Positions 47,577 through 64,000 of a stretch of DNA of 64,000 bases are shown here, piece by piece. Position 1 is the first letter of the stretch; each line of letters opens with the position of its first letter. Under the pieces are notes generated by a model that saw nothing but the letters and a program-made list of their open reading frames with translations, did no database searches and had not been told where the DNA came from. Where the stretch lies: positions 8,624-72,623 of the forward strand of contig JAUSKF010000006.1 of the NCBI GenBank assembly GCA_030646995.1. Direction: 5' to 3'. The position numbers and the translations under genes were made by a program. This DNA comes from a bacterium (GTDB lineage Bacteria; Patescibacteriota; Minisyncoccia; UBA6257; WO2-44-18).

Positions 47577-47676
47577 GGGCCACCTCCTTTGTTGGGGTTC
47601 TGTGGGAAATAATAAATCAAAAAACCAGTAATGTCAAGGTTGAAAGAAAGCCGATTTTATCGTAAAATATCGGAGT

Positions 47677-48630
47677 ATGTTAAGTGAACCGAAAGCGGTT
47701 TTAGTGACCGGGGCGACCGGTTTTGTGGGTTCTCATTTGGTGCAGAGATTGACCAATGAGGGATATCAGACCCATATCTTATTGAGAACAAAGTCCGATC
47801 CGTGGAGGATAGCGGACATTTTGCCGAAACTGAAAGCGCATAATGTGGACCTGACTGATAGAGAAGGATTAGTAAAACTGATGGAAGAGGTGAGGCCGAA
47901 CTTTATATTCCATTTGGCAACCGCCGGGGTTTATGGAGGGAAGTCTTTACCTGATCAAGATCTTTTGAAAATAAATTTGGGCGGATTCTTAAATTTGGTG
48001 GAGGCAACTAATGATCTCGAATATTCTTTGTTCGTTAACACTGGAAGTTCAAGTGAATACGGTCCCAAAAATGAAGCGATGAAAGAGGGTGATGTGTGTC
48101 AACCTTCAAATATGTATGGGATCACCAAGTTGGCCGCCACTTTATACGGCCAGGCAGTCGCTGCGACCCACAAAAAGCCGATCGTGACTTTGCGGCTTTT
48201 CTCTCCGTTCGGCTCGCACGACGATGCCAAGCGTTTTATGGCGATTGCTGTAAGCGGGGGAATAAAAAATGAGGAATTGATCCTTAGTAACCCCACAGCT
48301 GTGCGCGACTTTATTTATATTGACGATGTGATTGATGCCTATCTACAATGTATGAGCAAAGCGGAAGCGCTTCGCGGCCAGGTGCTCAATATCGGCAGTG
48401 GCATAGAGATTGGCATTCCGTCCCTGTGCGAGAAGCTAAAAGAAATAGGCAAGTTTACCAACACTATCCGTAAGGAGCCGGGTCAGCCGAGGCTGGGAGA
48501 GTCTCCGAGTTGGCAGGCGGACATCACGAAAGCCAAAAAGTTGTTGGGGTGGCAACCCAAGCGTTCGCTGGAAGAGGGGCTGGAAAAGACTATTACTTGG
48601 TTTAGGGAGAATCTTAAATCTTATGAATAA
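47677..48630 (+). CDS. NAD-dependent nucleotide-sugar epimerase/dehydratase (extended SDR)
   Basis: VLVTGATGFVGSHLV, S…YGITK catalytic motif. First gene of the 16-kb co-directional operon. Confidence 0.7.
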   Translation: MLSEPKAVLVTGATGFVGSHLVQRLTNEGYQTHILLRTKSDPWRIADILPKLKAHNVDLTDREGLVKLMEEVRPNFIFHLATAGVYGGKSLPDQDLLKINLGGFLNLVEATNDLEYSLFVNTGSSSEYGPKNEAMKEGDVCQPSNMYGITKLAATLYGQAVAATHKKPIVTLRLFSPFGSHDDAKRFMAIAVSGGIKNEELILSNPTAVRDFIYIDDVIDAYLQCMSKAEALRGQVLNIGSGIEIGIPSLCEKLKEIGKFTNTIRKEPGQPRLGESPSWQADITKAKKLLGWQPKRSLEEGLEKTITWFRENLKSYE

Positions 48631-49573
48631 CCATCTGACACAAAAGAAAATTTCCGTAGTGATTGCCTGCTACAACGAGGAGGCAAACATCCGGACCTTA
48701 TACGACCGGCTGATTAACGTTTTTAAAGACATCACCCCTCACTACGAATTTATCTACGTTGATAACAACAGCACTGATAGTTCGCCGCAGATCTATAAAG
48801 AGCTGGCGGCGCAGGACAAATCCGTTTCCGCCATATTAATGGCCAGGAATTTCGGAACTTCCGATTCTTCTTTTTCGGCCGGTACCGAATATGCCTCCGG
48901 CGACGCCGTGATCTGGATAGACGGTGACATCCAAGATCCTCCGGAGTTGATAAAAGAATTCGTGCAGAAATGGTTGGAAGGCAATGATGTTGTTTATGGC
49001 ATCCGGGCGAAGCGCGATGCCAGCTTGGTAATGAAGCTAGGTTCTAAGTTGTTCTATCGTGTCTTTAACAAAATGTCTTATATCCATATGCCGGTGGACG
49101 CGGGAGATTTCGGCTTGATGGACCGAAAGGTGGTGGACGTCTTCAATCAGCTGCCGGAGCGCGACCGGTTCGTGCGTGGATTACGGGCTTGGGTAGGCTT
49201 TAAGCAGACCGGAATACCGTACAAGCGAGCCGACCGCCAAGCAGGAGTGAGTACGCAAAAGATTTCGCGTTATTTTTACACCTTCCGCAAAGGAATCTTC
49301 TCCTTTTCTTATTACCCACTTTCCCTGATCACTTATCTGGCTGTTTTCGCTTTCTTTATTTTGGTGGCGGCAGGAATTATTTACCCGATTTGGTCCATTA
49401 TTGATCCCGCGCCTTCCGGATTCCTGACAATCTTAATGATTGTTTTGTTTATCGGCAGTGTGCAAATGATTTCTCTGGCAATCTTGGGCGAATATCTTGG
49501 AAGAATTTTTGAAGAAGTGAAGGGTCGGCCGAAGTATGTAATTCGGGAGATTATTAACGATAAAAGAAAATAA
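48623..49573 (+). CDS. GT2 polyprenyl-phosphate glycosyltransferase (ArnC/GtrB/DPM1-like) with C-terminal TM helices
   Basis: ISVVIACYNEEANI, YVDNNSTDSS, WIDGDIQDPPE (DxD region), two C-terminal TM helices. Confidence 0.75.
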   Translation: MNNHLTQKKISVVIACYNEEANIRTLYDRLINVFKDITPHYEFIYVDNNSTDSSPQIYKELAAQDKSVSAILMARNFGTSDSSFSAGTEYASGDAVIWIDGDIQDPPELIKEFVQKWLEGNDVVYGIRAKRDASLVMKLGSKLFYRVFNKMSYIHMPVDAGDFGLMDRKVVDVFNQLPERDRFVRGLRAWVGFKQTGIPYKRADRQAGVSTQKISRYFYTFRKGIFSFSYYPLSLITYLAVFAFFILVAAGIIYPIWSIIDPAPSGFLTILMIVLFIGSVQMISLAILGEYLGRIFEEVKGRPKYVIREIINDKRK

Positions 49574-51351
49574 TGAAGTTATCCGACTATTTAATTGAAT
49601 ATCTACGCGACCAAGGGGTGAAGGATGTTTTTTTGGTAACCGGAGGAGCGGTGGCGCACATCGTGGACTCTTTTCGAAACATAAAGGGCATTGATTATGT
49701 GTGCACCCAACACGAACAGCCGGCGGCGATGGCGGCAGAGGCTTACGCGCGTGTTACCGGAAATATTGGAGTGGCGATGGCGACCAGTGGGCCGGGAGCG
49801 ACTAATTTAATTACCGGAATGTGTTGCGCTTGGTTTGATTCTATCCCGACGGTTTATATCACGGGGCAGGTCAATCGCGGAGAGTCAAAAGGAAAGAGCG
49901 GAGCGCGGCAGGTCGGTTTCCAGGAAACCGACATTGTCAGCATGGTGAAGCCAATCACTAAGTACGCAGTATTAGTGGATGATCATTTGAAAATAAAATA
50001 TTACTTAGACAAAGCTTTTTATATGGCCAAAGAAGGCCGGCCCGGACCGGTTCTGATTGATGTGCCGATGGATGTCCAGCGGCAGGAAATTGACCCAGCG
50101 AAACTCAGGGGTTTTAACGCGCCGAAAGAAAAAACTGTGGATGCGGTTTTAAAAAAGAAAATTAAATCCGCCTTGGCATTGGTTGCGAAATCCCAGCGCC
50201 CGGTAATCCTTGCGGGTGGGGGAATTAAGTTAGCTAAGGGCAATGCTGAGCTTTTGGAATTCATTAAGAAAACCGGCTTCCCGGTAGTTACCTCTTGGAG
50301 CGGATTTGACCTAGTGCCGCACAACCATAAAATGTTGGTAGGGCAATTCGGAGTTTATGGAAACCGAGGAGCTAACTTTGCCGTGCAAAATGCTGATTTG
50401 ATAATTAGCGTGGGTTCTCGTTTGGATACAAGGCAAACCGGCGGCCGTCCGGCTACTTTTGCCAGAGAGGCAAAAAAAATTGTTGTGGACATTGATCAGT
50501 CTGAGCTGGATAAGCGCCGAGGTCTGACTCCTGATGTTGAGATTTGCGCCGACGCTAAGTTATTTTTGAAAGAGATGAATCAATCTCTTAAAGATATAAA
50601 AATTCCCAAGATTGATTCATGGCTGAAAAAGGCGGCTGAATGGAAAGTGAAATATCCTACAGTTCTCCCTGAATATGAAAAGCAAAAGGGCAGCGTTAAT
50701 TCCTATGTTTTCGCTAAAACTCTTTCCGAAGAAGCCGCGGCGAATTCAATCGTCCTTCCCGATGACGGAGGCAACCTTACTTGGACAATGCAGTCTTGGC
50801 AGCTGAAAGAAGGCCAGATGCTTTTTTCGGCCTTCGGGAATTCTCCGATGGGTTATTCTTTCCCGGCGGCGATTGGCGCTTCTTATGCCGCCGACCACAA
50901 ACGTCCGGTGATTTGTATCATCGGTGACGGCAGTTTCCAGATGAATATTCACGAACTGCAAACCGTTGCTCACTATAAGATTCCAATCAAGATATTTATT
51001 TTGAATAATCACTCTTACGGAATCATCAAGCAATTCCAGGATATGTATTTTGGTGGCCGACACGAGGCTTCTTCCTCGGACAAAGGCTATAGCTGTCCGG
51101 ATTTTATTAAAGTTGCTCAAGCATACGGGCTAAAGACTGTTTCTATTAATAATCATCAGGAGTTACGGAAAAAGATTAAGGAGGTGCTGGCCTCTAAGGA
51201 GGCAGTTCTATGTGATGTGTTGTTGGATGAAGGGCAAAAGTTGATGCCGAAATTGGAATTCGGAAAATCGATTGAAGACTTGATGCCTTATTTGCCGCGC
51301 GAGGAGTTTAAGAAAAATATGATCGTGAAGCCGTTGGACGAACCAAGATAA
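49573..51351 (+). CDS. Thiamine-pyrophosphate-dependent enzyme, acetolactate-synthase-like (YerE/IlvB family)
   Basis: TPP_enzyme N/M/C architecture; TPP-binding GDGSFQMNIHELQT with NN…; about 590 aa. Confidence 0.75.
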   Translation: MKLSDYLIEYLRDQGVKDVFLVTGGAVAHIVDSFRNIKGIDYVCTQHEQPAAMAAEAYARVTGNIGVAMATSGPGATNLITGMCCAWFDSIPTVYITGQVNRGESKGKSGARQVGFQETDIVSMVKPITKYAVLVDDHLKIKYYLDKAFYMAKEGRPGPVLIDVPMDVQRQEIDPAKLRGFNAPKEKTVDAVLKKKIKSALALVAKSQRPVILAGGGIKLAKGNAELLEFIKKTGFPVVTSWSGFDLVPHNHKMLVGQFGVYGNRGANFAVQNADLIISVGSRLDTRQTGGRPATFAREAKKIVVDIDQSELDKRRGLTPDVEICADAKLFLKEMNQSLKDIKIPKIDSWLKKAAEWKVKYPTVLPEYEKQKGSVNSYVFAKTLSEEAAANSIVLPDDGGNLTWTMQSWQLKEGQMLFSAFGNSPMGYSFPAAIGASYAADHKRPVICIIGDGSFQMNIHELQTVAHYKIPIKIFILNNHSYGIIKQFQDMYFGGRHEASSSDKGYSCPDFIKVAQAYGLKTVSINNHQELRKKIKEVLASKEAVLCDVLLDEGQKLMPKLEFGKSIEDLMPYLPREEFKKNMIVKPLDEPR

Positions 51352-52517
51352 TGGAGCATCAATTTTCTAAAGACGCAAAAAATTTAGTTGGCAGCCCGAT
51401 GTTCAAAATGATGGCGCGGGTGCAGGAGCTGGAAAAGTCCGGCAAGAAGATCATCCATTTTGAAATAGGCGATCCCGATTTTTCCACGCCTCAGCGTATT
51501 ACCGATGCGGCAATCGATGCTTTGAAGGCCGGAGAAACTCACTATGTGAATTCTTCCGGTATGGCCCAGCTACGCGATGCTATCTGCGATTCCACCGAAA
51601 AAGATCTGGGTTGGAGGCCGGAGCGTGAGCAGGTCGTCGTTGCCCCAGCGATTTCTTTTATTTATTTTACCGTCCGGGCGTTGGTTAATCCCGGTGAAGA
51701 AGTGATTGTAGCAGAGCCGGGCTATTCTTCATATTTTTCTACTTTTGACTTCATCGGCGTAAAGGCCGTCACCGTTCCGGTATTTGAAAAGAATAATTTT
51801 CGGCTAGCGGCGGCCGATCTGGAAAAAGCGATTACTCCAAAAACTCGGTTGGTAATTCTCACTTCTCCTAGTAATCCGACCGGGGCGATGATGACCAAGG
51901 AGAATTTGACGGCCATCTACAAGCTGGCGGAGAAGCATAATTTTTATATCTTGAGCGACGAGGTTTATAAAAAAATGACTTACGACTTGCCCTTTAGCTC
52001 CATTTCGGCCAACGACCGTTGCCAGGAACGGGTGATTATTTTGGATGGATTTTCAAAGGCTTATGCAATGACTGGCTGGCGTCTGGGTTATTCTATTGCT
52101 CCGAAGCCAATCGCTGAAAAATTAGGATTAATGATTCAGACGGTCATTTCCAATGTGCCCCCATTTATTCAATTGGCAGGCGTTGAGGCCCTTTCCGGAG
52201 ATCAGAGCAGTATAAAAGTGATGATGGATGAGTATCGAAAGAGAAAGGATGTGATGATTAAAGGATTTAATGAATTGCCTGGAGTTTCCTGCATAGATCC
52301 CGATGGAGCTTTTTATGCATTTCCGAATATTCAGAAAACCGGAATGACCAGCAAAGAATTTGCGGAATTTATTTTAGAAAAGGCCAACGTTGCGCTGTTG
52401 CCCGGCACTGATTTTGGGCCGCACGGCGAGGGATATTTACGTGTTACCTTTGCCACCTCTTTGTCTAATATTGAAGAAGGGCTTCGCCGGATGAAAGAAG
52501 CGCTGTCAAAAAAATAA
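51351..52517 (+). CDS. PLP-dependent aminotransferase, class I/II (AspB-like)
   Basis: IHFEIGDPDF, SPSNPTG, PLP-Lys SKAYAMTGWRLGY. Confidence 0.7.
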   Translation: MEHQFSKDAKNLVGSPMFKMMARVQELEKSGKKIIHFEIGDPDFSTPQRITDAAIDALKAGETHYVNSSGMAQLRDAICDSTEKDLGWRPEREQVVVAPAISFIYFTVRALVNPGEEVIVAEPGYSSYFSTFDFIGVKAVTVPVFEKNNFRLAAADLEKAITPKTRLVILTSPSNPTGAMMTKENLTAIYKLAEKHNFYILSDEVYKKMTYDLPFSSISANDRCQERVIILDGFSKAYAMTGWRLGYSIAPKPIAEKLGLMIQTVISNVPPFIQLAGVEALSGDQSSIKVMMDEYRKRKDVMIKGFNELPGVSCIDPDGAFYAFPNIQKTGMTSKEFAEFILEKANVALLPGTDFGPHGEGYLRVTFATSLSNIEEGLRRMKEALSKK

Positions 52518-52518
52518 A

Positions 52519-53823
52519 ATGGATAAAGAAATAGCGGGTTTCATAAAAAAGTATTACCAGAAGAACTTCGCGGGGAAGAAATTCGTTCCCGGCGAAACAC
52601 ATATTCCCGCTTCGGGAAAATCTTTTGATTATCAGGAGATGGTTTTGATGACGGAAGCCGTTTTGGATGGTTGGTGGACCGAGGGACGGTTCGCGGCGGC
52701 TTTTGAGAAGCAGTTGGCCGAATTCGTAGGCGTCAAACATTGCGTTACCACCAATTCCGGATCTTCGGCCAATCTTCTGGCTATTTCCGCGCTGACTTCT
52801 TATCATCTGGGCGAACGACGCTTGAAACCGGGAGATGAAGTGATTACTTTGGCAGCCGGATTCCCAACCACTATTAATCCGATAATTCTTCATCAAGCCA
52901 TCCCGGTTTTCGTGGATATTGATCTCGCGACTGCCAACGTGGATATTGGAAAATTAGAGAAAGCTTTCTCTAAAAAAACTAAAGCTGTGTTCCTTCCTCA
53001 CCATCTCGGCAATCCATTTAACGTGGCAGCCGTTCAGAAGCTTTGCAAAAAACATAAAGCCTGGCTGATAGAGGATTGTTGCGATGCTCTGGGGGCGAAA
53101 TTCGGTGGGAAGCGCGTCGGCAGCTTCGGCGACTTGTCCACCTTCAGTTTTTATGCCGCACACCACATAACCAGCGGAGAAGGAGGAGCGATAATGACCA
53201 ATGATGAGCGGCTGGCCGCCATCGTGCGTTCATTCCGTGATTGGGGTCGGGAATATTGGTTCAAGACTGGCGAGGATATCCGACGCAACAAAGGCCTGGG
53301 AACGGTTAAGCACAGCAAGCTTCCGGCTGATTACGATGATAAATTTATCTTCTCCGAGATCGGCTACAACCTGCGCCTGACCGATATGCAGGCCGCGCTG
53401 GGTTTAGTTCAACTCGGAAAGATCGGAGAGTTCGCGAAACGTCGGGAAAGCAATTTCCAATATTTGTATAAGTTGATGAGCCCGTATAAAAAGTTCTTTA
53501 TTTTGCCGGGCATGGAAAAATCCGCAGCGCCTTCTTGGTTTGGATTTTTAATGACCCTGAAGCCGGATTGCCCATTTACTCGTAAGGAATTCGTGGATTA
53601 TTTGCACAAACACAACGTTGGTACCCGTATGTTCCTCGCCGGCAACGTTATCAAGCAGCCGTACTTCCAGATATATAAGGTAAAGTTTAAAGCTGGGAAT
53701 CTTGCCAGCACGGATTACGTTTTGAGTAATTCCGTTTGGGTCGGAGTCCATCAGGCGATTGATAATGAGAGGAGGGAATATATGGGGAAAGTCTTGAAGT
53801 CGTTTTTGGCGAAGTATAAATAA
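52519..53823 (+). CDS. DegT/DnrJ/EryC1/StrS-family PLP/PMP enzyme, RfbH/DdhC-like (CDP-4-keto-6-deoxyglucose 3-dehydratase-like)
   Basis: KKFVPGETHIPASGKSFDYQEMVLMTEAVLDGWWTEGRF…VKHCVTTNSGSSANLLAISALTS matches the RfbH N-terminus; 434 aa, which is the RfbH size class. Confidence 0.7.
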   Translation: MDKEIAGFIKKYYQKNFAGKKFVPGETHIPASGKSFDYQEMVLMTEAVLDGWWTEGRFAAAFEKQLAEFVGVKHCVTTNSGSSANLLAISALTSYHLGERRLKPGDEVITLAAGFPTTINPIILHQAIPVFVDIDLATANVDIGKLEKAFSKKTKAVFLPHHLGNPFNVAAVQKLCKKHKAWLIEDCCDALGAKFGGKRVGSFGDLSTFSFYAAHHITSGEGGAIMTNDERLAAIVRSFRDWGREYWFKTGEDIRRNKGLGTVKHSKLPADYDDKFIFSEIGYNLRLTDMQAALGLVQLGKIGEFAKRRESNFQYLYKLMSPYKKFFILPGMEKSAAPSWFGFLMTLKPDCPFTRKEFVDYLHKHNVGTRMFLAGNVIKQPYFQIYKVKFKAGNLASTDYVLSNSVWVGVHQAIDNERREYMGKVLKSFLAKYK

Positions 53824-55172
53824 TGACAAAGACCATTTTTATTACGATCTTCCAAGGAGTGGAGGCGCGTAATATTCTCCGAACCGATATATATAAGGAA
53901 TTGGTTGGTCGTCCGGATGTTCGGCTGGTTCTTTTTACCGACAGTGAAGAGAAAAGGAATTATTATCAAAAGGAATTTAACGGTCCGAACGTGATCTATG
54001 AGGTCGTTGGGGAATATCACGCTCGCGGCATTCAGAAATTTTTTGGTGCAGCCAAATTCAATCTAATTAATACTGCCACGGTTGATATTAAAAGAGATAT
54101 CCTGTTTTTCAAAGAACATAGTTATCTGAAATTTTATCGGCGGTGGCTGATCAATCGGCTGTTCGCGCGCAATTTTGTTCGCCGGATAGTTCGCTGGTTG
54201 GACTGGCGGTTGGTTTCTGACCAGTTTTTTAAAAAGTATTTTGATCAATACGATCCGGATCTAGTCCTATCAGCACATCTTTTTGGTGGCACAGAGACCG
54301 CAGTGATTCGGGAGGCGCGCCGTCGTGGAGTTGTCAGCGTCGGATTGATCAATTCCTGGGATAAACTGACCGCCAGAGCAATGATCCGTTTGCTTCCGGA
54401 TTGGATGATTGTTCATAACGATTCAGTGAAAAAAGATGCGATTATTTATGCCGATATGCCAGCTGGTCGCATCTTCGTTTCCGGCATACCCCACTTCGAT
54501 CGGTATAAGACCGGGACCAGGGCTCCGCGCGATCGCTTTTTGCAAGAGATCGGCCTTGACCCCGATAAAAAAACCATTTTGTATCTTCCAGTCGGTCGCG
54601 CCGCCAGTGATGATGATGCCGATATGATGAAATTTTTTGCCGATCTGTTATCGGATAAACGTTTGAAATTTCCGACTCAGCTGATTTTTCGATTCCCGCC
54701 TAATGATGAGATTGTCGCGGAGGGAAAATTTCCAAATGGTGTAGTTATTCAAACACCGGGACGAAGATTCTCTTTGAAACGTGGATCGGATTGGGATATG
54801 AATGAGGACGATTTCCGGATCCTAGCCGACACAATTACTAGCAGTGATGTCGTGGTCGGGTATCCTTCAACGATGATGATAGATGCGGCGATTTTTGATA
54901 AGCCGGTGATTAACATTGCATATGAGCGGCGCCCGCATCCCCGAAATTTCATCCTCTGGGCTTACGAGGTGGATCACTATCGGTCCGTGCTCAATACCGG
55001 CGCCGTCCGGTTGGTTAAGAATGACGATGAATTAATTGATCAGCTGAATGCTTATTTTGCGGATCCTTCATCGGATCGTGAGGGGCGCCGTCGTTTAGTC
55101 GCGGAGCAATGCGGCGCACAGGACGGTAAGGCGGGAAAGCGGGTGGCGGATTTTTTGCTAAACCGTATTTAA
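53823..55172 (+). CDS. TagB/TagF-like polyol-/glycosyl-phosphate transferase, paralog 5
   Basis: MTKTIFITIFQGVEARNIL; VVGYPSTMMIDAAIFDKPVINIAYE; terminal QDGKAGKRVADFLLNRI. Confidence 0.5.
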   Translation: MTKTIFITIFQGVEARNILRTDIYKELVGRPDVRLVLFTDSEEKRNYYQKEFNGPNVIYEVVGEYHARGIQKFFGAAKFNLINTATVDIKRDILFFKEHSYLKFYRRWLINRLFARNFVRRIVRWLDWRLVSDQFFKKYFDQYDPDLVLSAHLFGGTETAVIREARRRGVVSVGLINSWDKLTARAMIRLLPDWMIVHNDSVKKDAIIYADMPAGRIFVSGIPHFDRYKTGTRAPRDRFLQEIGLDPDKKTILYLPVGRAASDDDADMMKFFADLLSDKRLKFPTQLIFRFPPNDEIVAEGKFPNGVVIQTPGRRFSLKRGSDWDMNEDDFRILADTITSSDVVVGYPSTMMIDAAIFDKPVINIAYERRPHPRNFILWAYEVDHYRSVLNTGAVRLVKNDDELIDQLNAYFADPSSDREGRRRLVAEQCGAQDGKAGKRVADFLLNRI

Positions 55173-55943: not shown

Positions 55944-56291
55944 ATGGAAAAAATTTTGGGTATCGGTGTGGATCTTGCAGAGGTCGGGAGGTTTCGGAAA
56001 ATGCCGTTTAAGCGGCATTCCGATTTCTATAAAAAAATTTTTACCGCGTCGGAGATAAAGTATTGTTTATCGAAAGAAAATCCTTATCCGCACTTCGCCG
56101 CTCGCTTTGCCGCCAAAGAAGCGGTGCTTAAGTGTATTCAAGGTACTATTTATAAAATTTTGGATGTGGAGATTTTCAATGATAAAAATGGAGCTCCGAG
56201 TGTTAAAGTTAAAAAGCAGCGAGGAAGATTTTTGGTTTCGCTTTCGCACACCAAAGATCACGCTATTGCCACAGCAATATGGTTAAATTAA
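55944..56291 (+). CDS. acpS: Holo-[acyl-carrier-protein] synthase (4'-phosphopantetheinyl transferase, AcpS type)
   Basis: ILGIGVDLAEV, RFAAKEAVLKCIQ, SLSHTKDHAIATAI. Confidence 0.7.
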   Translation: MEKILGIGVDLAEVGRFRKMPFKRHSDFYKKIFTASEIKYCLSKENPYPHFAARFAAKEAVLKCIQGTIYKILDVEIFNDKNGAPSVKVKKQRGRFLVSLSHTKDHAIATAIWLN

Positions 56292-57757
56292 TTCAAGAAT
56301 ATTTTTCCGCATCAGCCGAGAAATTTCCGGATAAGATTGCGGTTAACTGGAAAGATCAAAATATTACTTTTGCGGAATTAGAGAGCCGGAGTAATCAGCT
56401 GGCTTTCGCTCTCAAAGGATTAGGGGTGAAGCGAGGAGATCGCATAGCTTTTTGTCTTCAAAAATCTCCCAAAGCAATTCAAGTAATTCTCGGAATTTTG
56501 AAGGTAGATGCGGCCTATGTACCTTTGAATCCCAGAGCTCCGGAAGCAAGGATCGCGCAAATGATTAACGACGCGCAGCCATCGGTTGTGATTTGCGAAC
56601 GGGCTACTAAGGCTTTGGTGAAAAGTGGCAAGGTTTTTGATTTGGACGAAAAGGCAGAAATGCTAGCAGATATGCCGGTCAGTGCGATGCATTGCAAAAA
56701 TACCTCCGTTGATCTTGCCTACATCCTTTACACTTCCGGCTCTACTGGTATTCCTAAGGGCGTAATGATTACGCATGGCAATATTATCAACGCAACCGAT
56801 TGGGCAGTAGAAGAATTTGGTATTAGCGAAAAAGATAGGATGTCTCAGCATCCGCCGTTGCACTTTGACCTCTCCACTTTTGATCTTTATTGCGCTTTTA
56901 AGGCAGGAGCGACTTTGTATTTGGTGCCGGAGGAGTTATCCTTATTCCCGGGCCAGCTTCTGAAATTTATTGAAGAGAGTAAATTAACTATTTGGAATTC
57001 TGTGCCATCAGTTTTAGTTTATCTTTGGAACTCGGGTTTAATTAAAGAGGATCGTTTATCACTGGTACGGAAATTTTTCTTCAATGGCGAAGGATTTCCG
57101 ACCCGATTTTTGGCCGAGTGGATGAAAACTTTTCCGAAAAAAGAATTCGTGAATATGTATGGGCCGACCGAGACGACCGTTCAGTGTACTTTCTATCGGA
57201 TACCAGAGGCGCCGACCGATCTGACCAAGTTGGTGCCTATCGGCAAGGCCTGTCGCAATGTGGAAGTTTTTCTTGTGGATGGAGAATTGTGTGTTGCCGG
57301 CGACGGCGTGGGGCTGGGGTATTGGAATAACCCCGAAAAGACAGCAGTCTCATTTGTGGATATTACGGGCAAGGGGCGAGTCTATAAAACCGGAGATTCG
57401 GGTCGGTTACTTCCGGATGGCAACTATGAATTTATCGGGCGGAAGGATTTTCAGGTAAAAATAATGGGCAATCGGATAGAATTGGGCGATGTGGAGGCGG
57501 CTTTGTTAGCTTTGCCATATATCGAAGACGCTGCAGCGGTTGCGATAGACGCGTCCGCAACAGGAGGGCAGGAGCTTATCGGTTTTGTGAAGTTGAAAGA
57601 AGCGAAGGAGGAATTGATGATCAAAATAGATTTGGCAAAACTTATTCCGCAATATATGGTTCCGGCAAAGATAGTAGTGCGTCCTCTTTTGCCCCGTACC
57701 AGCACCGGGAAGGTGGATCGTAATGCTTTAAAATCAGACTATGGAGATAAAAAATAA
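56279..57757 (+). CDS. Stand-alone adenylation (AMP-binding) enzyme, DltA-like carrier-protein ligase
   Basis: A3 YILYTSGSTGIPKGV, A5 YGPTETTV, A7 YKTGDSGRL, A8 GRKDFQVKIMGNRIELGDVE, A10 PRTSTGKVDRNAL. About 490 aa with no condensation domain. Confidence 0.75.
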   Translation: MVKLIQEYFSASAEKFPDKIAVNWKDQNITFAELESRSNQLAFALKGLGVKRGDRIAFCLQKSPKAIQVILGILKVDAAYVPLNPRAPEARIAQMINDAQPSVVICERATKALVKSGKVFDLDEKAEMLADMPVSAMHCKNTSVDLAYILYTSGSTGIPKGVMITHGNIINATDWAVEEFGISEKDRMSQHPPLHFDLSTFDLYCAFKAGATLYLVPEELSLFPGQLLKFIEESKLTIWNSVPSVLVYLWNSGLIKEDRLSLVRKFFFNGEGFPTRFLAEWMKTFPKKEFVNMYGPTETTVQCTFYRIPEAPTDLTKLVPIGKACRNVEVFLVDGELCVAGDGVGLGYWNNPEKTAVSFVDITGKGRVYKTGDSGRLLPDGNYEFIGRKDFQVKIMGNRIELGDVEAALLALPYIEDAAAVAIDASATGGQELIGFVKLKEAKEELMIKIDLAKLIPQYMVPAKIVVRPLLPRTSTGKVDRNALKSDYGDKK

Positions 57758-57962
57758 AGTTCGGGAATTTCTTAAAACAGAAACTCAAAAAGAAATTACC
57801 AACGATTCGGAGAATCTGATTACTTCCGGAGTGCTCGATTCTTTTTCGATGATTAAATTGATTACTTTTATTGAGAGCGAGCTAAAGATCAAGGTGGATA
57901 TGGAAAAATTATCTGCGGAAAATTTTAATTCCATCGAGAAGATAGATGAATTTCTTCGGTAA
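57741..57962 (+). CDS. Acyl/aminoacyl carrier protein (DltC-like)
   Basis: 73 aa with GVLDSFSMIKLITFIE; the Ser in the LDS motif is the phosphopantetheine attachment site. Overlaps the adenylating enzyme gene by 17 nt. Confidence 0.6.
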   Translation: MEIKNKVREFLKTETQKEITNDSENLITSGVLDSFSMIKLITFIESELKIKVDMEKLSAENFNSIEKIDEFLR

Positions 57963-58004
57963 ATAGGCTTGCCAAAAGCAGTAAATTCTCGTATATTTTT
58001 TATT

Positions 58005-59012
58005 ATGAAAAAGGCGCTTATTACTGGAATCGCCGGCCAAGACGGAAGCCATTTGGCAGAGCTTTTACTCGGAAAGGGATATGAGGTTCACGGAGTCATC
58101 CGACGTTCTTCCAGCTTCAATACCGCCCGCATCGCCCATCTTTTTAGCGATATTCATGAGCCCAACCAACGGCTCCATCTCCACTATGGAGATCTCTCTG
58201 ATGCGGCGATGATTCGTAAAATTATTTATAAGATATCCCCGGATGAGATATATAATTTGGGCGCTCAATCGCATGTGCGGGTGTCGTTCGATATTCCGGA
58301 GTACACCGCTGACATTACCGGTTTGGGCGCGCTTCGGGTTTTGGATGCAATTAAGGATTTTCAGGAACACACAGGCAAGAAAGTAAAATATTATCAGGCA
58401 TCTTCTTCGGAGATGTTTGGGGCTGCTGTTCCGCCGCAGAATGAAGAAACGCCGTTTTGGCCAAGAAGTCCGTATGGCGTGGCCAAGACCTTCGCCTATT
58501 ATACAACTAAGAATTATCGGGAGGCCTACGGAATTTTCGCAGTGAACGGAATTTTATTTAATCATGAAGGTCCGCGCCGTGGAGAGACGTTTGTGACCCG
58601 GAAAATTTCCCGAGGAGTTGCCAGAATTAAAGCCGGATTGGATAAGAAAATTTATCTGGGATATTTAGATTCGCGGAGAGATTGGGGGTATGCTCCGGAA
58701 TACGTAGAGGCCATGTGGATGATGCTTCAGCAGGACAAGCCGGAGGATTATGTTATCGGTACCGGAGAATCCCATTCAATTCGGGACTTTTTGGATGTTG
58801 CGTTCGCTCATGCCGGATTAGGAGATTGGAAGCCCTATGTGGAAATCGATCCTCGCTACCATCGTCCAGCGGAGGTAGAGAATCTGGTCGCCGATACTCG
58901 GAAGGCCAAAGAAAAACTCGGATGGGTCGCCAAGACTAAATTCCATGATTTAGTGAAGATAATGGTGGACGCTGACATTAAAGCGATATGCCCAGACAAA
59001 TTAGAAAAATAG
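58005..59012 (+). CDS. gmd: GDP-mannose 4,6-dehydratase
   Basis: [34 protein letters not shown], catalytic [18 protein letters not shown]. Start at the ATG at 58005. Confidence 0.85.
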
Positions 59013-60190
59013 GGGTTGGCACGGTGAAGATATCGCCGCTTGCCAAAAAATACGTCAACGAAGCTTTGGATAATCACAGGCTTTCTTATGGGCCGTTTTT
59101 ACGCAGATTTGAAAATGAATTCGCTAAGTTGCATGCGAGAAAATATGCGATCAGTTGCAATAGTGGCACCGGAGCCTTGCAGATCGCAATCGGGGCCTTG
59201 AAAGAAGTTCACAATTGGAAAGATGGAGACGAGGTGATCGTGCCGGCGCTGACTTTTATCGCCACTTCTAATGTGGTTATTCAAAATGGACTGAAGCCGA
59301 TCTTCGTGGATATCGATCCAGTTACCTATAATATCGACCCTTCGAAAATAGAGGAGAAGATCACCAAGCGCACCCGGGCGATCATGCCGGTCCATCTTTT
59401 CGGTCTTTCTTCCGATATGGAAGCCGTGATGAAGATTGCAAAGAAATATAAATTGAAAGTAGTGGAGGATTCTTGTGAGTCCATGTTCGCTGATCATAAG
59501 GGAATGCCTGTGGGTTCTCGGGGAGATATTTCCTGCTTCTCTACTTATGCCGCCCATCTTGTGGTCACCGGCGTCGGCGGTTTGTCGCTGACCAACAATC
59601 CGAAGTACGCCGTGGTGATGAAAAGCATGATGAATCATGGCCGTGATTCTATTTATATGAATATTGACGACGATGATAAGCTGACTGACGATCGATCAAT
59701 TTTTAAAATGGCCGACCGGCGTTTTTCTTTCGTTAGAATGGGTTACAGCCTTCGCCTAACAGAGCTGGAGGGCGCGCTTGGCGTTGCGGAGCTGGAAAAT
59801 CGGCACAGTAATCTGAAAAATCGTTCGATTAACGCCGACTACTTACTCAAAGGACTCTCGAAATTTTCCAATTTGATCCAGCTTCCTTCCTGGCCGAAGC
59901 ATTCCGAACACGCCTTTATGATGTTCCCGATAGTGGTGAAGGATAAGCAAATCAGCAGGGATAAGTTGATTACTTATCTAGAAAAGAACGGTGTTGAGAC
60001 GCGCTACATGCTTCCTTTGTTGAATCAGCCCTATTACAAAAAGATCTTTGGTGATATCGAGAAAAATTATCCGGTGGCCCAATGGATCAATAATAATGGT
60101 TTTTATATCGGTTGCCATCAGAATCTTTCCCGCAAAGATCTGGATTACGTCATCGAAGTTTTCTCTGATTTTCTTAAAAAATGGATCTAA
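58988..60190 (+). CDS. DegT/DnrJ/EryC1/StrS-family sugar aminotransferase (GDP-perosamine synthetase-like)
   Basis: [26 protein letters not shown]; sits immediately after gmd. Confidence 0.75.
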
Positions 60191-61116
60191 GTAAAAAAAA
60201 TATACTTATTACCGGCGGAGCCGGTTTTTTGGGCCGTAGGGTTTTTGACAAGTTGGTTGAGCGCGGCGTGCCGGCTGAGAAGATTTCCGTTACTCGGTCA
60301 AAAGAGTACGATCTGCGTGATGCCGCGGCCTGCAAAGAGGTCGTTAAGGGGAGGGATATCGTTATTCATCTGGCGGCCATCGTCGGCGGTATCGGCTACA
60401 ATCGTAAGCATCCCGGAGTGGCATTTTACGACAATGCGGCGATGGGGATGAATATTTTGGAGGCCTTTCGGTTGGCGGGTGGAGAAAAATTTGTGGGAGT
60501 TGGCAGTGTCTGCTCCTATCCGAAGTTTGCCCCGGTACCTTTTCAGGAAAAAGATCTATGGAACGGTTATCCGGAGGAAACCAATGCTTCTTATGGTCTC
60601 GCTAAGAAAATGATGTTAGTGCAATCGCAAGCCTATCGGCAAGAATATGGGACTAATGCCGTCCACCTTTTAATGGTGAATCTCTATGGCCCCGGTGACA
60701 ATTTTGACCCGGAGAATTCTCATGTAGTCCCGGCTCTGATTCGAAAGGTGGCGGAGGCAAAAAAGGAGGGTCGCCCATTCATAGAAGCTTGGGGCACCGG
60801 CTCTGCCACCCGTGAGTTTCTATACGTTGATGATGCTGCCGAAGCGATTGTGCTGGCGGCAGAAAAATATGACAAAGGTGAGCCAGTAAATATCGGCTCC
60901 GGTCAGGAGATGAGCATTAAAGACCTGATGGTTACTATCTGTCGGTTGATGGATTATAATGGAGAAATCCGTTGGGATAGTTCTAGGCCCGATGGCCAAC
61001 CTCGCCGCTGTTTGGATGTCGGTTTAGCTGAAAAAGAATTTGGTTTTCGGGCCAAGACTTCCATGGAAGAGGGGTTTCGTAAAACTATTAATTGGTTTTT
61101 GGAAAATCATAAATAA
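60181..61116 (+). CDS. fcl: GDP-L-fucose synthase-like 3,5-epimerase/4-reductase (Fcl/WcaG family)
   Basis: ILITGGAGFLGRRV, SVCSYPKFAPVPFQE, YGLAKKM, NLYGPGDNFDPENSHVVPALIRK. Confidence 0.8.
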   Translation: MDLSKKNILITGGAGFLGRRVFDKLVERGVPAEKISVTRSKEYDLRDAAACKEVVKGRDIVIHLAAIVGGIGYNRKHPGVAFYDNAAMGMNILEAFRLAGGEKFVGVGSVCSYPKFAPVPFQEKDLWNGYPEETNASYGLAKKMMLVQSQAYRQEYGTNAVHLLMVNLYGPGDNFDPENSHVVPALIRKVAEAKKEGRPFIEAWGTGSATREFLYVDDAAEAIVLAAEKYDKGEPVNIGSGQEMSIKDLMVTICRLMDYNGEIRWDSSRPDGQPRRCLDVGLAEKEFGFRAKTSMEEGFRKTINWFLENHK

Positions 61117-63629
61117 TGAAATTAGCGCTCTGCTTTTTAACTTATAACGAAGCGGAATGTTTGAAGAAAATTTTACCTGGCCTCGATACTTCAATGTTCG
61201 ATGAGGTTTTTGCTGTTGATGGCGGTTCTACCGATGGCACTTTGGATATCTACCAGCAGAAGAATATCCGGGTTATTCCGCAGAAGTCTCGGGGTCGTGG
61301 CGAGGCGTTTAAGTTGGCGGAAAAATCTACCGACGCGGATGCTGTCGTGTATTTTAGCCCGGACGGCAATGAAGACTCGGCCGATTTTCCTAAATTTAGA
61401 ATTTTGTTGGAGCAAGGAGCGGACATCGTGATTGCCTCTAGGATGATGAGGGGGGCTATAAATGAAGAAGATATTTCCTGGTGGCGGCCGCGCAAGTGGG
61501 TAAACAATGCCTTTAATTTGGCTGCCAATATTTTATGGAATCGTTCGGGAAAATATATTACCGACTCTATCAACGGTTTCCGGGCTCTGCGTCGGGGAAT
61601 TATTGAGAGGCTTGGTCAGGACGCCATCGGATACACTATTGAATATCAAAATACGATTCGGGCAATGAAAGCCGGTTTGAAGATCGTGGAATTTCCGACT
61701 CATGAAGGTCAGCGCCTTGCCGGTGGAACCCAGGCGCAGTCCTTGAAAGTTGGGCTGCAATTCGTCAAATGTCTTTTTCGGGAAATCGGATTAAGTTTTT
61801 CAAAAAATAGGTTCCTTTTGTTACTAGCTGCGAGCGCGGTTTTTGTTGGGTTGGTTTATGTTCTCCCGCCACTTCTAATCGAGAGAAAAATATTGAGTCA
61901 GGGGGATTCTTTTTTATTAGTCCAGCCGGAAACTTATCGGGATGAGTTTTTCAGCTATGTTCCGCGTGATCGGGAGGTTTTCGACGGGCACTTCCCGGCG
62001 GCGGGCCCCTACGCGAACGATAATCCGCAAACGCTGATGAATCAGTTCCCGCCATTGATATTCTCCGCCTTCATTTATTTGTTTGGCGGTAATGTAGAGT
62101 CCGGATATCTTGCTTTGCAATTTGTTTTTTCCGCCCTGGCTTTTTTGTTATTTTTTTCCCTAGGATCGGCAATGATGAAGTCGCGGTTGTGGGGAGTTCT
62201 GCTGGGTTTTATTGGAGTTTTCACCTATCTTGCCCAACAGATATTTTATTATGCTTATCGCAATCCGCTTGCTATCTACTTCAATAATTTCATTCCGTTC
62301 GTCCGGACGCCGATCTCGAAAATGCCGCTTGCGCGTATTGAAGACCCGCTGATCACCCTCCCTGTTTTTCTAGCCGTGCTTATCGCCTTCTATTCTTTTT
62401 GGAATAAACCCAGACGTTCTACTGCGATTATTACCGCCCTGCTTTCTGGATTGCTGGCCTACACCTATCTTCATCATTGGCTTATGATGATGGTCATCAT
62501 CGGATCAGTTTTTATTCTGGTTCTGCTGACGCGTCGCCACGACAAGGCCTTGATCAAAAATTTCTTGATTTTATTCTCCGTCGCTGGGGTAGTAGTTTTG
62601 CCATATTTGATAAATAATTTTTCTTTCCTGGCCACCCATGGAAAAGACTTTGCTTTGCGTTTGGGATTGGAGCAGGGCCGAGGTCATATTTGGCAGATGA
62701 TCTTTGAAACCCCGATCGTTTTCGACCATATCATCTACTCAATCCTTTTCGCCGTAGTTTATCTGGTTTATTTCCGCTGGCGCCCTGATAGAAAAAAAGG
62801 GCTTTTTATGGCCGGCCTTACCTTATCAATGTTCTTGGTTTGGCAGATACCGTTGATTTTGGGATCTTTTCCTCAGATCTCGCATTTTATAAAATCGGTA
62901 AGTTTAGTAGCTTTGTTGATCATCGTAAATCTCATTTATGACGTGCTGGTTGGATTGGGTAAACGGGGAAGATTGGCGGCCTTGGCGTTGGGTATTTCTT
63001 TAATCGCTGGCCTAGCAGGCAAAAAATTAGTGAATACTTTGATATTCATCAACCCGCCCGCAGGCATCGTGAAAGAGTATAGTTTTCCTAAAGAAATGTT
63101 GGATTCCTGGAGTTGGATAGATGCTAATTTGGGCAAAGAGCCGAAGATCGTTTCTTCATCTTTAGTGACCTCGCTTTATCTTGCCGGTAACACCAAGGCG
63201 CGCCCTTATCTTCCGACCGGATTTATTTCGGCTTTACCAACGACCGAATTGGAGAAAAGATTTATGTTGGTGAATAAATTATTTGGAGTTACTCCGGAGA
63301 TGTTGAGTCGGAGGATAAAAGATTTTGACGATGATTTTAGTGACATCTGCGCCGGAGAAGAGTGCTTTAAGGCCTCGCATTTTAATTTTACAAAAAACCG
63401 ATGGTACTTGGCTGAGCATGGTTGGTATATGACAGAGATGGCTTCTAGTCCGGAAAAGGCGATTGCGGGGTACCGGAAAATGAAGGCCTCTTGGAAAGAC
63501 ACTAACGCTGACTATGTTTATTATGGCCCCTGGGAAAAACAGTTTGGCGCTGCCCGTCTTTCGAGCGACCCCAATCTTAAGCAGGTCTTCAAAAATTCTT
63601 TGGTAGAGATATATCAGATCCAGAGATAG
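61116..63629 (+). CDS. Fusion protein: N-terminal GT2 (DPM1/ArnC-like polyprenyl-phosphate glycosyltransferase) plus C-terminal ~600-aa GT-C-like polytopic membrane domain
   Basis: GT2 domain KLALCFLTYNEAECL…FAVDGGSTDGT…; multi-TM C-terminal domain homologous to the ORF at 43097..44929. 837 aa. Confidence 0.7.
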   Translation: MKLALCFLTYNEAECLKKILPGLDTSMFDEVFAVDGGSTDGTLDIYQQKNIRVIPQKSRGRGEAFKLAEKSTDADAVVYFSPDGNEDSADFPKFRILLEQGADIVIASRMMRGAINEEDISWWRPRKWVNNAFNLAANILWNRSGKYITDSINGFRALRRGIIERLGQDAIGYTIEYQNTIRAMKAGLKIVEFPTHEGQRLAGGTQAQSLKVGLQFVKCLFREIGLSFSKNRFLLLLAASAVFVGLVYVLPPLLIERKILSQGDSFLLVQPETYRDEFFSYVPRDREVFDGHFPAAGPYANDNPQTLMNQFPPLIFSAFIYLFGGNVESGYLALQFVFSALAFLLFFSLGSAMMKSRLWGVLLGFIGVFTYLAQQIFYYAYRNPLAIYFNNFIPFVRTPISKMPLARIEDPLITLPVFLAVLIAFYSFWNKPRRSTAIITALLSGLLAYTYLHHWLMMMVIIGSVFILVLLTRRHDKALIKNFLILFSVAGVVVLPYLINNFSFLATHGKDFALRLGLEQGRGHIWQMIFETPIVFDHIIYSILFAVVYLVYFRWRPDRKKGLFMAGLTLSMFLVWQIPLILGSFPQISHFIKSVSLVALLIIVNLIYDVLVGLGKRGRLAALALGISLIAGLAGKKLVNTLIFINPPAGIVKEYSFPKEMLDSWSWIDANLGKEPKIVSSSLVTSLYLAGNTKARPYLPTGFISALPTTELEKRFMLVNKLFGVTPEMLSRRIKDFDDDFSDICAGEECFKASHFNFTKNRWYLAEHGWYMTEMASSPEKAIAGYRKMKASWKDTNADYVYYGPWEKQFGAARLSSDPNLKQVFKNSLVEIYQIQR

Positions 63630-63674
63630 CTTCTTGATTCACTAGTGATTCTATGATTAAATCTTTGTATTATG

Positions 63675-64000
63675 GAAAAAGTTGGGTGCGAGGTCTGCGC
63701 TTTTCGTAATCCCAGGGCGACGGTCACGGCTTTGATTTTGAAAGATAAAAAAGTTCTTTTGGCGAAGCGCACACAGGAACCCTTCTTGGGCTGGTGGGAT
63801 CTAATAGGCGGGTATATGAGTGAGCAAGAAGTTCCTGAGGACGCCCTGCGAAGAGAAATCAAGGAAGAGTTGTCTATAGATTGTGGTAAAATGGAACTTG
63901 TCGGATTTTTCCCCGGTTACGCGGAATGGAAGGGGGTAAGTAATCCGATTCTTTCTATCGTATATCGAACTGATTTATCTGATCAGAAAATTAATTTAAG
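63675..64000 (+). CDS. NUDIX hydrolase (5' part; continues beyond the window)
   Basis: Nudix box GGYMSEQEVPEDALRREIKEELS (GX5EX7REUXEEXGU); N-terminal CEVC zinc-ribbon-like Cys pair; no stop before the window end. Confidence 0.6.

Follow-up and report, generated by a model that had tools for sequence, protein, structure and literature searches.

The gene at 61116..63629 encodes an 837-aa protein that probably combines in one polypeptide the two catalytic activities of a Gtr/Arn/Dol-P-Man-type glycosylation pathway, which runs through a polyprenyl-phosphate-monosaccharide; we put the probability of this reading at roughly 70%. An earlier note on the window (the whole 64,000-nt stretch of DNA that was analysed) had proposed a polyprenyl-phosphate-sugar GT2 fused to a GT-C-type transferase, accompanied by a stand-alone GT-C paralog, and predicted fold, acidic loop motif, domain fusions, and gene neighbourhoods all agree with this proposal. 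Both open reading frames are present as described, the paralog being a 610-aa protein encoded at 43097..44929. Like every gene of the two neighbourhoods described below, they lie on the forward strand.

Domain organization of the fusion protein

The N-terminus of the fusion (aa 1-205, 61116..61730) is a DPMS/AglJ-like GT2 domain with a GT-A fold, as claimed: PF00535 matches residues 9-166 with E=4.8e-11 and residues 1-223 match the dolichyl-phosphate mannose synthase (DPMS) of PDB entry 5mlz with E=1.9e-10. The domain is nearest to those GT2 members that use polyprenyl phosphate (DPMS/GtrB/ArnC/AglJ type). Its best NCBIfam matches are AglJ, Dol-P-hexose transferase, and PpgS, and it stays under all NCBIfam equivalog cutoffs (AglJ 80.9 bits vs 325, NF041391 63 vs 375, PpgS 29 vs 370). 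The domain carries the motifs VDGGSTDGT and FSPDGNED, and the latter or a one-residue variant of it (YSPDGNED, FSPDGNEN) occurs in 15/15 of the subfamily GT2 sequences listed. Since the D-A-D of DPMS aligns with S81-P82-D83 of the fusion, the second Asp alone is retained and SPD replaces the canonical DXD.

Between the GT2 and TM1 lies an amphipathic linker helix (aa 208-230, 61737..61805; residues 209-230 in the model) with a hydrophobic moment of 0.59 at aa 208-225, which is predicted to rest at the membrane interface. It is followed by the transmembrane module (aa 232-643, 61809..63044) and by a C-terminal extracytoplasmic alpha/beta domain (aa 644-837, 63045..63626) with conserved W667, Y800, G804-P805, and E807. 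Residues 231-837 of the fusion align with residues 3-610 of the stand-alone protein at 33% identity over 634 columns (BLASTP, E=2e-95). At the sequence level this similarity is far above chance and bears out the proposed paralogy, and both conserved blocks quoted by the earlier note were found (RHDKALIKNFL / RHEKALIKNFL and DYVYYGPWEKQF / NYVYYGPLERQF). The only feature seen downstream of the fusion gene is a partial NUDIX-like ORF.

The membrane domain is predicted to adopt a GT-C fold

The AlphaFold model of the fusion has a pLDDT of 91.4, and all significant Foldseek matches (21/21) are GT-C proteins, the structural matches including Pmt4, AftA, STT3B, AglB, and ArnT. The fold of catalytic GT-C enzymes is matched over 444-450 residues, and the multi-TM core resembles that of solved GT-C structures. 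A transporter, which the earlier note had named among its counter-cases, was considered and rejected, as MFS proteins matched at a Foldseek probability of at most 0.14.

The domain crosses the membrane many times, as had been noted, but the count of about 14 TM helices has to be revised: AlphaFold models and charge distribution give 11 TM helices, besides loop helices that associate with the membrane. The N-terminus lies inside and the C-terminus outside, with a K/R density of 0.32-0.36 inside vs 0.08-0.11 outside, following the positive-inside rule. This topology places the GT2 in the cytoplasm and all residues conserved to at least 85% (D48/D276, R290, the NxQxxxG..H loop, W439, and E580) on the outer face or in TM cores.

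Features of GT-C enzymes are 8-13 TM helices, an N-terminus inside, and a long first external loop with a conserved acidic motif such as DXD or DE (PMC5836110). In the family described here, the first external loop comprises ~66 aa and contains the acidic motif that the earlier note had suggested looking for, namely D48 in the stand-alone protein (codon 43238..43240) and D276-E277 in the fusion (61941..61946, translated as YRDEF). Asp occupies this position in 92% of 203 family members, with the consensus 'DE'. D276-E277 represents the candidate catalytic acid pair, and topology together with conservation suggests that D276 sits in a GT-C-like active-site pocket. Of the two external-loop Asp residues conserved in the family, the second (D69) is replaced by Gly297 in the fusion.

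The membrane domain lies outside known GT-C sequence families

The HMM checks proposed earlier (PMT, PMT_2/ArnT, STT3, and the DUFs) were all negative. Neither window protein matched PF02366 (GT39) or PF13231 (PMT_2; GT83, ArnT-like) at E<=1. The membrane domain of both proteins retrieved nothing from Pfam plus NCBIfam at E<=1, or from the PDB when its sequences were searched with one sequence or with a profile. Among 52 alignment members searched against Pfam, two matched PMT_2 weakly (best E=0.0023) and one matched DUF6798, which is not a listed GT-C family, with E=0.089, while YfhO, DUF2079, DUF2723, DUF6056, and other bacterial GT-C Pfam families gave no match at E<=1. With the listed HMMs negative, the domain is GT-C by fold and falls outside GT39, GT83, and GT66; on the basis of the modelled fold, we regard it as a putative, previously unannotated GT-C family.

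Membership in the oligosaccharyltransferases (GT66) was rejected because the WWDYG motif is missing: it occurs in 0/203 family members, and no STT3 HMM match was obtained. A further difference from STT3/AglB/PglB is that the membrane domain has a polyprenyl-monophosphate-type GT2 as its partner. We also considered that the GT-C may work like PglB/AglB on oligosaccharides linked to polyprenyl diphosphate, whether as oligosaccharyltransferase, ligase, or polymerase, with the GT2 serving as a cytoplasmic glycan-elongating transferase that adds the last sugar, the deoxy-sugar. We rate this as unlikely.

Fusions and neighbouring genes link the GT2 with the GT-C

The membrane family comprises ~2,100 clusters at 50% identity and often occurs as two or three paralogs per tiny genome. 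The majority of its members are stand-alone proteins. Six other members are fused to unrelated GT2s (at most 25% identical), two distant members contain GtrA/DPMS-TM domains, and one carries a GT4. Other organisms have the GT2 subtype of our fusion (50-57% identical) joined in one protein with PMT/PMT_2 GT-C domains, with Gmd, or with an Fcl-like SDR. In five loci (L016, L019, L024, L028, and L031), a GT2 of the fusion type is encoded on its own, as a protein of ~230 aa, in a cluster with GT-C, Gmd, and Fcl-like genes, accompanied in L019 by a ColD-like gene (72% identical). Domain fusions and neighbourhoods thus tie the GT2 and GT-C halves together and show that the family has been repeatedly and independently fused or placed adjacent to polyprenyl-phosphate-sugar synthases. 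From this association with DPMS/ArnC-type GT2s and with GtrA domains, we infer that the membrane family uses a lipid-phosphate-linked donor on the extracytoplasmic face.

The upstream cassette points to a GDP-3,6-dideoxyhexose donor

The first cassette gene upstream of the fusion (57969..59012) encodes a GDP-mannose 4,6-dehydratase (Gmd; TIGR01472 511 bits, cutoff 415), has an 82% identical ortholog within the same cassette in locus L003, and overlaps the next gene. This second gene (58988..60190) encodes a DegT-family PLP/PMP enzyme of the ColD/E1 sugar 3-dehydratase type, with a full-length match to ColD (PDB 2gms, E=2e-45) and RfbH, under cutoff, as best NCBIfam model. In this enzyme, His190 takes the place of the Schiff-base Lys; the aligned residue is Lys in perosamine synthetase (3bn1) and His in E1 dehydrase (3bcx), and His190 is kept in L003. 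The third gene (60181..61116) encodes a GDP-L-fucose synthase-like SDR (ColC-like 3,5-epimerase/4-reductase) that scores 269 bits with NF047922 (Fcl), under the cutoff of 500, and matches GDP-fucose synthases in the PDB with E=1e-62. Its stop codon overlaps the start codon of the fusion in the junction ATAATGA. The four genes recur in Parcubacteria Gr01-1014_3 as an isolated cassette with overlaps between its members. Across 55.6-64 kb, predicted promoter and terminator sites were no commoner than in shuffled sequence.

The enzyme set of the GDP-colitose pathway is therefore present, consisting of Gmd, a His-type PMP-dependent 3-dehydratase, and an Fcl-like epimerase/reductase. Enzyme types and order are those of the GDP-L-colitose pathway of E. 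coli O55 and Yersinia (Gmd, ColD, ColC), including the His in place of the Schiff-base Lys. The product would be a GDP-3,6-dideoxyhexose, most simply GDP-L-colitose, stereochemistry aside, an assignment drawn from three family-level sequence matches of which two are under curated cutoffs. 3,6-Dideoxyhexoses are known chiefly as Gram-negative O-antigen sugars, and colitose is normally attached to O-units by cytoplasmic Leloir transferases, whereas the pathway described here would feed a DPMS-like GT2.

The stand-alone paralog probably has a separate GT2 partner

The paralog would do the same job in a split system, with a separate, full-length GT2 of the ArnC/PgfS/GtrB type as partner. This 316-aa protein (48623..49573) matches PgfS (3.1e-69) and ArnC (9.6e-45) over the full model length, both under cutoffs. 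A GT2 gene adjoins or lies near the paralog orthologs in L001, L005, and L006 and is found within 6 kb in 20/28 genome loci, and the 316-aa protein is likely the lipid-loading partner of the stand-alone GT-C.

The start of the paralog gene is overlapped by a gene for a PF01522 polysaccharide deacetylase with no signal peptide (42172..43113, PF01522 1.2e-22), which is kept upstream of the paralog orthologs and occurs in 11/28 loci. A TagF-like gene of the glycerophosphotransferase family (40809..42161) lies further upstream; it matches PF04464 with E=1.7e-4 and 21.1 bits, slightly under the cutoff of 22.1. TagF-like homologs adjoin the GT-C in L001, L005, and L006 and in 19/28 loci. In L001 and L006, overlapping genes follow the order TagF-like, deacetylase, GT2, GT-C; L005 shows synteny with the window. 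The split system resembles Arn in that a possible ArnD-like gene comes after the TagF-like gene and before the GT2/GT-C pair. This cytoplasmic deacylase would probably be part of the split system, which would also draw on a CDP-3,6-dideoxyhexose pathway.

A cell-wall glycopolymer is favoured as acceptor

The earlier note had put forward a 1250-aa Thr/Ser-rich surface protein (8960..12712) as the acceptor. Its Ser+Thr content of 22.5%, signal-peptide-like N-terminus, and PG_binding_1 domain indeed give it a surface or S-layer-like composition, but a dedicated Ser/Thr-rich tract was not found, the Ser+Thr content peaking at 37% in residues 601-700. The structural neighbours of the membrane domain include PMTs, and streptococcal GtrB/GT-C systems are reported to glycosylate Ser/Thr-rich regions (PMC12041528). 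O-glycosylation of this secreted protein by the fusion in a PMT- or Pgf-type manner is nevertheless improbable, because its gene is 48 kb away from that of the fusion and 30 kb away from that of the paralog, the four-gene cassette is also found in a setting that lacks a gene of this kind, and MIR or other peptide-binding domains are absent. In addition, the conserved neighbours of the paralog are TagF-like, deacetylase, and GT2 genes and not surface proteins. The TagF-like neighbours point to a glycopolymer acceptor instead, and we regard a cell-wall glycopolymer, teichoic-acid-like or other, as a better candidate than a protein.

Proposed pathway and membrane crossing

We propose that the translationally coupled Gmd, His-type ColD/E1-like, and Fcl/ColC-like enzymes turn GDP-mannose into a GDP-3,6-dideoxyhexose, as judged from homology and context. 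The DPMS-like GT2, held at the membrane by the amphipathic helix and the TM bundle, would load this sugar on polyprenyl (undecaprenyl-type) phosphate, and the lipid-linked sugar would then be flipped across the membrane. Finally, the 11-TM GT-C would move the sugar to an outside acceptor using Asp276(-Glu277) and the extracytoplasmic C-terminal domain. For this last step we infer the chemistry, while fold, topology, and the outside-facing conserved residues come directly from the analysis.

Searched with two GtrA domains (phmmer), neither the ORFs of the window (E<=10) nor 34 related loci (E<=1e-3) yielded a match, and the window contains no small multi-TM ORF. Describing the system as self-contained was therefore overstated, since no flippase gene was identified in the window or the 34 loci. 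The fusion may alternatively be a complete load-flip-transfer machine of a new GT-C family, so far seen in CPR only, in which the sugar crosses along or through the GT-C bundle without a dedicated flippase and decorates a teichoic-acid-like polymer; this extension is speculative and, in our estimate, rather unlikely.

It is very unlikely that the membrane domain of the fusion is no transferase and acts as an anchor or activator for the GT2, in the style of DPM3-DPM1 or GacJ-GacI, or as a flippase. In favour of such a role, the fusion-type GT2, at ~230 aa where separate, has no TM helix of its own, short GT2s of this kind need a membrane partner, as in GacI/GacJ and WpsA/WpsB (PMC10821137), and both a nearby flippase gene and the second loop Asp (G297) are lacking. 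However, 11 TM helices and a 190-aa external domain are more than an anchor needs, conservation is concentrated on the extracytoplasmic face, D276 included, most family members stand alone, and the domain is folded like catalytic GT-C enzymes.

Comparison with known systems

Patescibacteria (CPR) represent a large share of bacterial diversity, and to our knowledge their cell envelopes are almost uncharacterised. A literature search of a limited corpus found no earlier description of GT2-GT-C fusions or of CPR GT-C enzymes. Our analysis assigns a fold to a large family of membrane proteins labelled 'hypothetical', proposes a plausible function for them, and predicts that 3,6-dideoxyhexoses reach the CPR surface by a lipid-monophosphate route. 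It also suggests that whole GT-C families are missed by sequence-based annotation and can be recovered by structure prediction. As a natural compact two-enzyme unit, the fusion would suit structural work on the handover from synthase to transferase and on the flipping step.

Three-component systems are known from GtrA/GtrB/GtrC, ArnC/ArnD/ArnE-F/ArnT, and CsbB/YfhO, GtlA/GtlB, and PgfS/PgfM (PMC5836110, PMC11127046). As in Gtr- and Arn-type systems, the GT2 would load a single sugar on polyprenyl phosphate in the cytoplasm and the GT-C would transfer it outside. In contrast to them, the two catalytic parts form one polypeptide, the neighbourhood contains no gene for a GtrA- or ArnE/F-type flippase, the GT-C lies outside their sequence families, and the predicted donor pathway is GDP-based instead of UDP-based. 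AftA (galactan 5-O-arabinofuranosyltransferase, PDB 8if8, GT85) is a structural match with a sequence identity of 10%; its Pfam models gave no match at E<=1, and it differs in organism, donor sugar, and acceptor. Pyrococcus DPMS (PDB 5mlz) and archaeal AglJ resemble the GT2 half, but DPMS has four TM helices of its own where the fusion has a GT-C, its DAD is SPD here, and it uses mannose whereas the sugar predicted here is a 3,6-dideoxyhexose. Similar in layout are uncharacterised GT2-PMT_2 fusions such as P0058, P0059, and P0062, whose GT2 is of the same subtype (54-57% identity in the two that were measured, P0058 and P0059) and likewise N-terminal, with the GT-C at the C-terminus. Their GT-C halves, however, match PF13231 and PF02366 and show no detectable sequence kinship to the family described here, the hhalign comparison of our family profile with the PMT_2 halves giving a non-significant probability of 3%.

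Domain architecture and fold

The fusion protein (837 aa, 61116..63629, + strand) and its stand-alone paralog (610 aa, 43097..44929, + strand) lie exactly where an earlier note on this DNA had placed them. The first ~225 residues of the fusion form a GT2 domain (PF00535, E=4.8e-11), and its membrane half is homologous to the stand-alone protein (BLASTP of residues 231-837 against 3-610: 33% identity, E=2e-95). The two sequence blocks quoted in the note as shared are found in both proteins in the BLASTP alignment, confirming its observation. The top NCBIfam matches of the GT2 domain were AglJ, dolichyl-phosphate hexose transferase, and PpgS, each under its equivalog cutoff, and in the PDB residues 1-223 were closest in sequence to a dolichyl-phosphate mannose synthase from Pyrococcus (5mlz, E about 1e-10).

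The membrane domain is far less tractable by sequence. The GT39, GT83, GT66, and DUF models to which the earlier note had pointed did not recognize the C-terminal domain, and every sequence-level test of membership in these families or in YfhO failed. Pfam and NCBIfam gave no family for the membrane domain of either protein at E<=1, and a PDB search with a 52-homolog profile returned no match. Pfam scans of the 52 homologs one by one yielded only noise, with PMT_2 in two of them (best E=0.0023), and when the family profile was compared with profiles of bona fide PMT_2 domains, the probability was a non-significant 3%. An exhaustive profile search puts the family at 2,105 representatives at 50% clustering, 436 of them with E<=1e-30; the database homologs are all unnamed hypothetical proteins from Patescibacteria/Parcubacteria MAGs.

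Where sequence is silent, structure prediction settles the GT-C identity of this domain. A model of the paralog built from a 52-sequence alignment (mean pLDDT 94.2, pTM 0.92) gave 21 Foldseek matches at E<=1e-3, all of them GT-C, including STT3 (3e-7), PglB, AftA (TM-score 0.54), AglB, and ArnT; an MFS transporter fold reached a probability of at most 0.14. The GT-C reading therefore survives the possibility, raised in the note, of a transporter or unrelated DUF without GT-C signature. In the full-length fusion model (pLDDT 91.4, pTM 0.86), the membrane half matched Pmt4 (15.9), AftA (15.6, 444 residues), STT3B, AglB, Pmt2, and ArnT. AftA, OSTs, ArnT, and PMTs are its closest structural relatives; the OST-specific WWDYG motif is present in 0 of 203 family members. 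We consider a role as OST, ligase, or polymerase on diphosphate-linked glycans unlikely. Given the GT-C-like structure, the failed sequence-family tests, and the lack of WWDYG, the family is best classed as GT-C on the strength of its fold but as new at the sequence level.

Our preferred reading, with a probability of about 0.7, is that the fusion combines both catalytic steps of polyprenyl-phosphate-monosaccharide glycosylation in one polypeptide, the GT2 half loading polyprenyl phosphate and the GT-C half transferring the monosaccharide, and that the paralog would perform the transfer step in another such system whose components are separate proteins. What the computations show are the domain identities, the GT-C fold, the topology, the outward-facing conserved residues, and the recurrent fusion and adjacency; the lipid acceptor of the GT2, the sugar, catalysis by D276/E277, and the final acceptor are inferred. 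In this predicted function, the fusion is comparable to the Gtr, Arn, CsbB-YfhO, and Pgf systems.

Recurrent coupling of GT2 and GT-C modules

In other organisms, GT2 domains with 50-57% identity to that of the window precede a recognized PMT/PMT_2 GT-C domain, in the N-to-C order of the fusion (P0058, P0059, and P0062), or are joined to Gmd (P0068) or an Fcl-like SDR (P0063). Among the top 150 representatives of the GT-C family, six carry an N-terminal GT2 (P0102, P0164, P0181, P0194, P0210, and P0215) that is at most 25% identical, or without detectable kinship, to the window's GT2. A GtrA/DPMS-TM domain is fused in P0188 (top 150) and in the more distant member P0074; other fusions within the top 150 involve GT4 and a methyltransferase, in one representative each. 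The varied GT2 and GtrA partners therefore indicate that the family has been joined to polyprenyl-phosphate-pathway modules several separate times.

Across 28 Patescibacteria loci taken from species-representative genomes, the genes within 6 kb of a family GT-C include a GT2 (20/28), a TagF-like gene (19/28), a PF01522 deacetylase (11/28), and Gmd (10/28). Five of these loci encode the fusion-type GT2 on its own, in a gene of ~230 aa clustered with GT-C, Gmd, and an Fcl-like gene. The Ca. Harrisonbacteria cluster (L019) additionally holds a ColD-like gene (72% identical; Fcl-like gene, 71%) and is the exact split counterpart of the window's fused arrangement. In Parcubacteria Gr01-1014_3 (L003), Gmd, the ColD-like gene, the Fcl-like gene, and the fusion, 68-82% identical to those of the window, form an isolated cassette of overlapping genes with unrelated flanks.

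Individual small CPR genomes contain two or three GT-C-family paralogs (L012, L024, and L003, Parcubacteria Gr01-1014_3), and further pairs of loci share a genome (L013/L016, L011/L017, L014/L019, L018/L022, L015/L023, L010/L027, and L008/L031); the paralogs are sometimes in tandem (L019, L025). Such multiplicity implies several donor or acceptor specificities per cell.

GT2-GT-C fusions with PMT_2-type partners are already present in databases, and the two proteins hold no conceptual surprise for glycobiologists; the limited corpus of literature searched contained no published description of such fusions or of the membrane family. They do represent a sizeable enzyme family so far without annotation, a case of synthase and transferase naturally fused with no accompanying flippase, and a tangible entry point to CPR envelope chemistry.

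Sugar pathways and candidate acceptors

Upstream of the fusion lie Gmd (57969..59012; TIGR01472, 511 bits vs 415 cutoff), a DegT-family enzyme (58988..60190), and a GDP-fucose-synthase-like gene (60181..61116). The Gmd ORF as listed has a TTG start at 57969, and its L003 ortholog aligns only from residue 14 onward; the true start is probably a downstream Met (MKKALITG...). The DegT-family enzyme matches ColD over its full length. Its His190 stands where perosamine synthetase has the Schiff-base Lys and aligns with the His that the E1 3-dehydrase uses in catalysis. This Lys-to-His change of ColD and E1 is the mark of PMP-dependent 3-dehydratases. Judged by sequence, the three enzymes are consistent with a Gmd/ColD/ColC pathway whose product would be a GDP-3,6-dideoxyhexose, for example colitose, stereochemistry aside; split clusters without the ColD-like gene would supply a 6-deoxyhexose such as fucose.

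In L001 and L006, the ortholog of the paralog follows directly on TagF-like, PF01522 deacetylase, and GT2 genes, whose reading frames overlap. The gene order of L005 is syntenic with that of the window (TagF-like, GT-C, Glc-1-P cytidylyltransferase, SDRs, GT2, TPP or transketolase enzyme, aminotransferase, RfbH). In the window, the paralog's partner GT2 is likely the full-length ArnC/PgfS-like gene at 48623..49573. In the Arn pathway, the PF01522 deformylase ArnD works on the lipid-linked sugar after ArnC and before ArnT; by position, the deacetylase at 42172..43113, which has no signal peptide, may be its analog.

The window contains five TagF-like (PF04464) genes (21224..22570, 37045..38364, 39399..40799, 40809..42161, and 53823..55172), four above the Pfam cutoff and that at 40809 slightly under it. 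The recurrence of TagF-like neighbors suggests a polyol-phosphate, teichoic-acid-like polymer or other wall glycopolymer as acceptor and, given their presence in 19/28 other loci, that teichoic-acid-like polymers are common among Patescibacteria. The earlier note had suggested the 1250-aa protein (8960..12712) as a possible acceptor. Its surface-like character stands, but it lies 48 kb from the fusion and its gene does not accompany the cassette elsewhere, making this acceptor unlikely.

Topology and conserved residues

Helix boundaries of the models and the positive-inside rule predict 11 TM helices, rather than the ~14 first proposed, with the N-terminus inside and a C-terminal domain of ~190 aa outside. 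K/R density inside and outside is 0.36 vs 0.08 for the paralog and 0.32 vs 0.11 for the fusion. This topology places the GT2 domain of the fusion in the cytoplasm, linked to TM1 by a predicted amphipathic helix (about aa 208-226, hydrophobic moment 0.59).

In 203 members aligned to the family HMM, every position with at least 85% conservation maps to the outer face or to a TM core; the cytoplasmic loops contain none. In stand-alone numbering they comprise D48, G63, D69, P168, P185, Y223, Y225, R290, W439, an N346-x-Q348-x3-G352...H359 loop, and G577-P578-x-E580. D48, equivalent to D276 of the fusion, is Asp in 92% and Glu in another 4% of the sequences. An acidic motif in the first external loop is a defining GT-C feature (PMC5836110); the motif that the note had proposed to look for is there, with the family consensus "DE" and D276-E277 in the fusion, the putative catalytic residues. 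That the membrane half, with these outward-facing residues, is only an anchor or only a flippase is very unlikely.

Other genes in the window

A second, CDP-linked 3,6-dideoxyhexose pathway occupies 44983..53823, with a Glc-1-P cytidylyltransferase (292 bits, slightly under the 300 cutoff), an RfbH/E1 3-dehydrase (569 bits vs 423 cutoff), SDRs, a class I/II aminotransferase, and an acetolactate-synthase-like TPP enzyme (49573..51351), which L005 replaces with a split transketolase. The TPP enzyme beside a CDP-4-keto-3,6-dideoxyhexose pathway recalls YerE-type synthesis of branched-chain sugars (yersiniose), to which it may be analogous. Three genes sit directly upstream of the Gmd cassette (55944..57962). 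The first (55944..56291) encodes an AcpS-like phosphopantetheinyl transferase and the second (56279..57757) a DltA-like amino-acid adenylation enzyme (TIGR01733, 370 bits vs 317 cutoff; DltA models, 322-327 bits, under cutoff); the product of the third (57741..57962) is a carrier protein of 73 aa that has an LDS motif. The three may serve D-alanylation-like aminoacylation of a wall polymer; neither DltB nor DltD was seen.

The glycan locus includes two radical SAM enzymes (26232..28343 and 34734..36023), a B12-binding enzyme resembling KedN5-type C-methyltransferases and a SPASM/twitch enzyme, which may methylate or otherwise change sugars; B12-radical SAM genes are also close to the paralog orthologs in L001 and L006. 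A nonulosonic-acid branch in this locus is suggested by 23341..25284, which encodes a NeuC-type hydrolysing UDP-GlcNAc 2-epimerase (TIGR03568, 307 bits vs 236 cutoff) as well as a PseF-like CMP-sugar cytidylyltransferase; NeuB is found in the related locus L001. Two FolD-like genes, SHMT, and a D-2-hydroxyacid dehydrogenase (150..935 and 29636..32646), all within the glycan locus except one FolD, might provide one-carbon units such as formyl groups for sugar modification; no accompanying formyltransferase was identified. An ORF at 6426..7136 (236 aa, ~5 predicted TM helices, without Pfam match) shares 56 nt with the 3' end of ClpB (3866..6481). Downstream of the fusion, a partial ORF (63660..64000) with the NUDIX-box-like sequence GGYMSEQEVPEDALRREIKEELS may encode a nucleotide-sugar hydrolase; the paralog loci L001 and L006 contain NUDIX genes as well.
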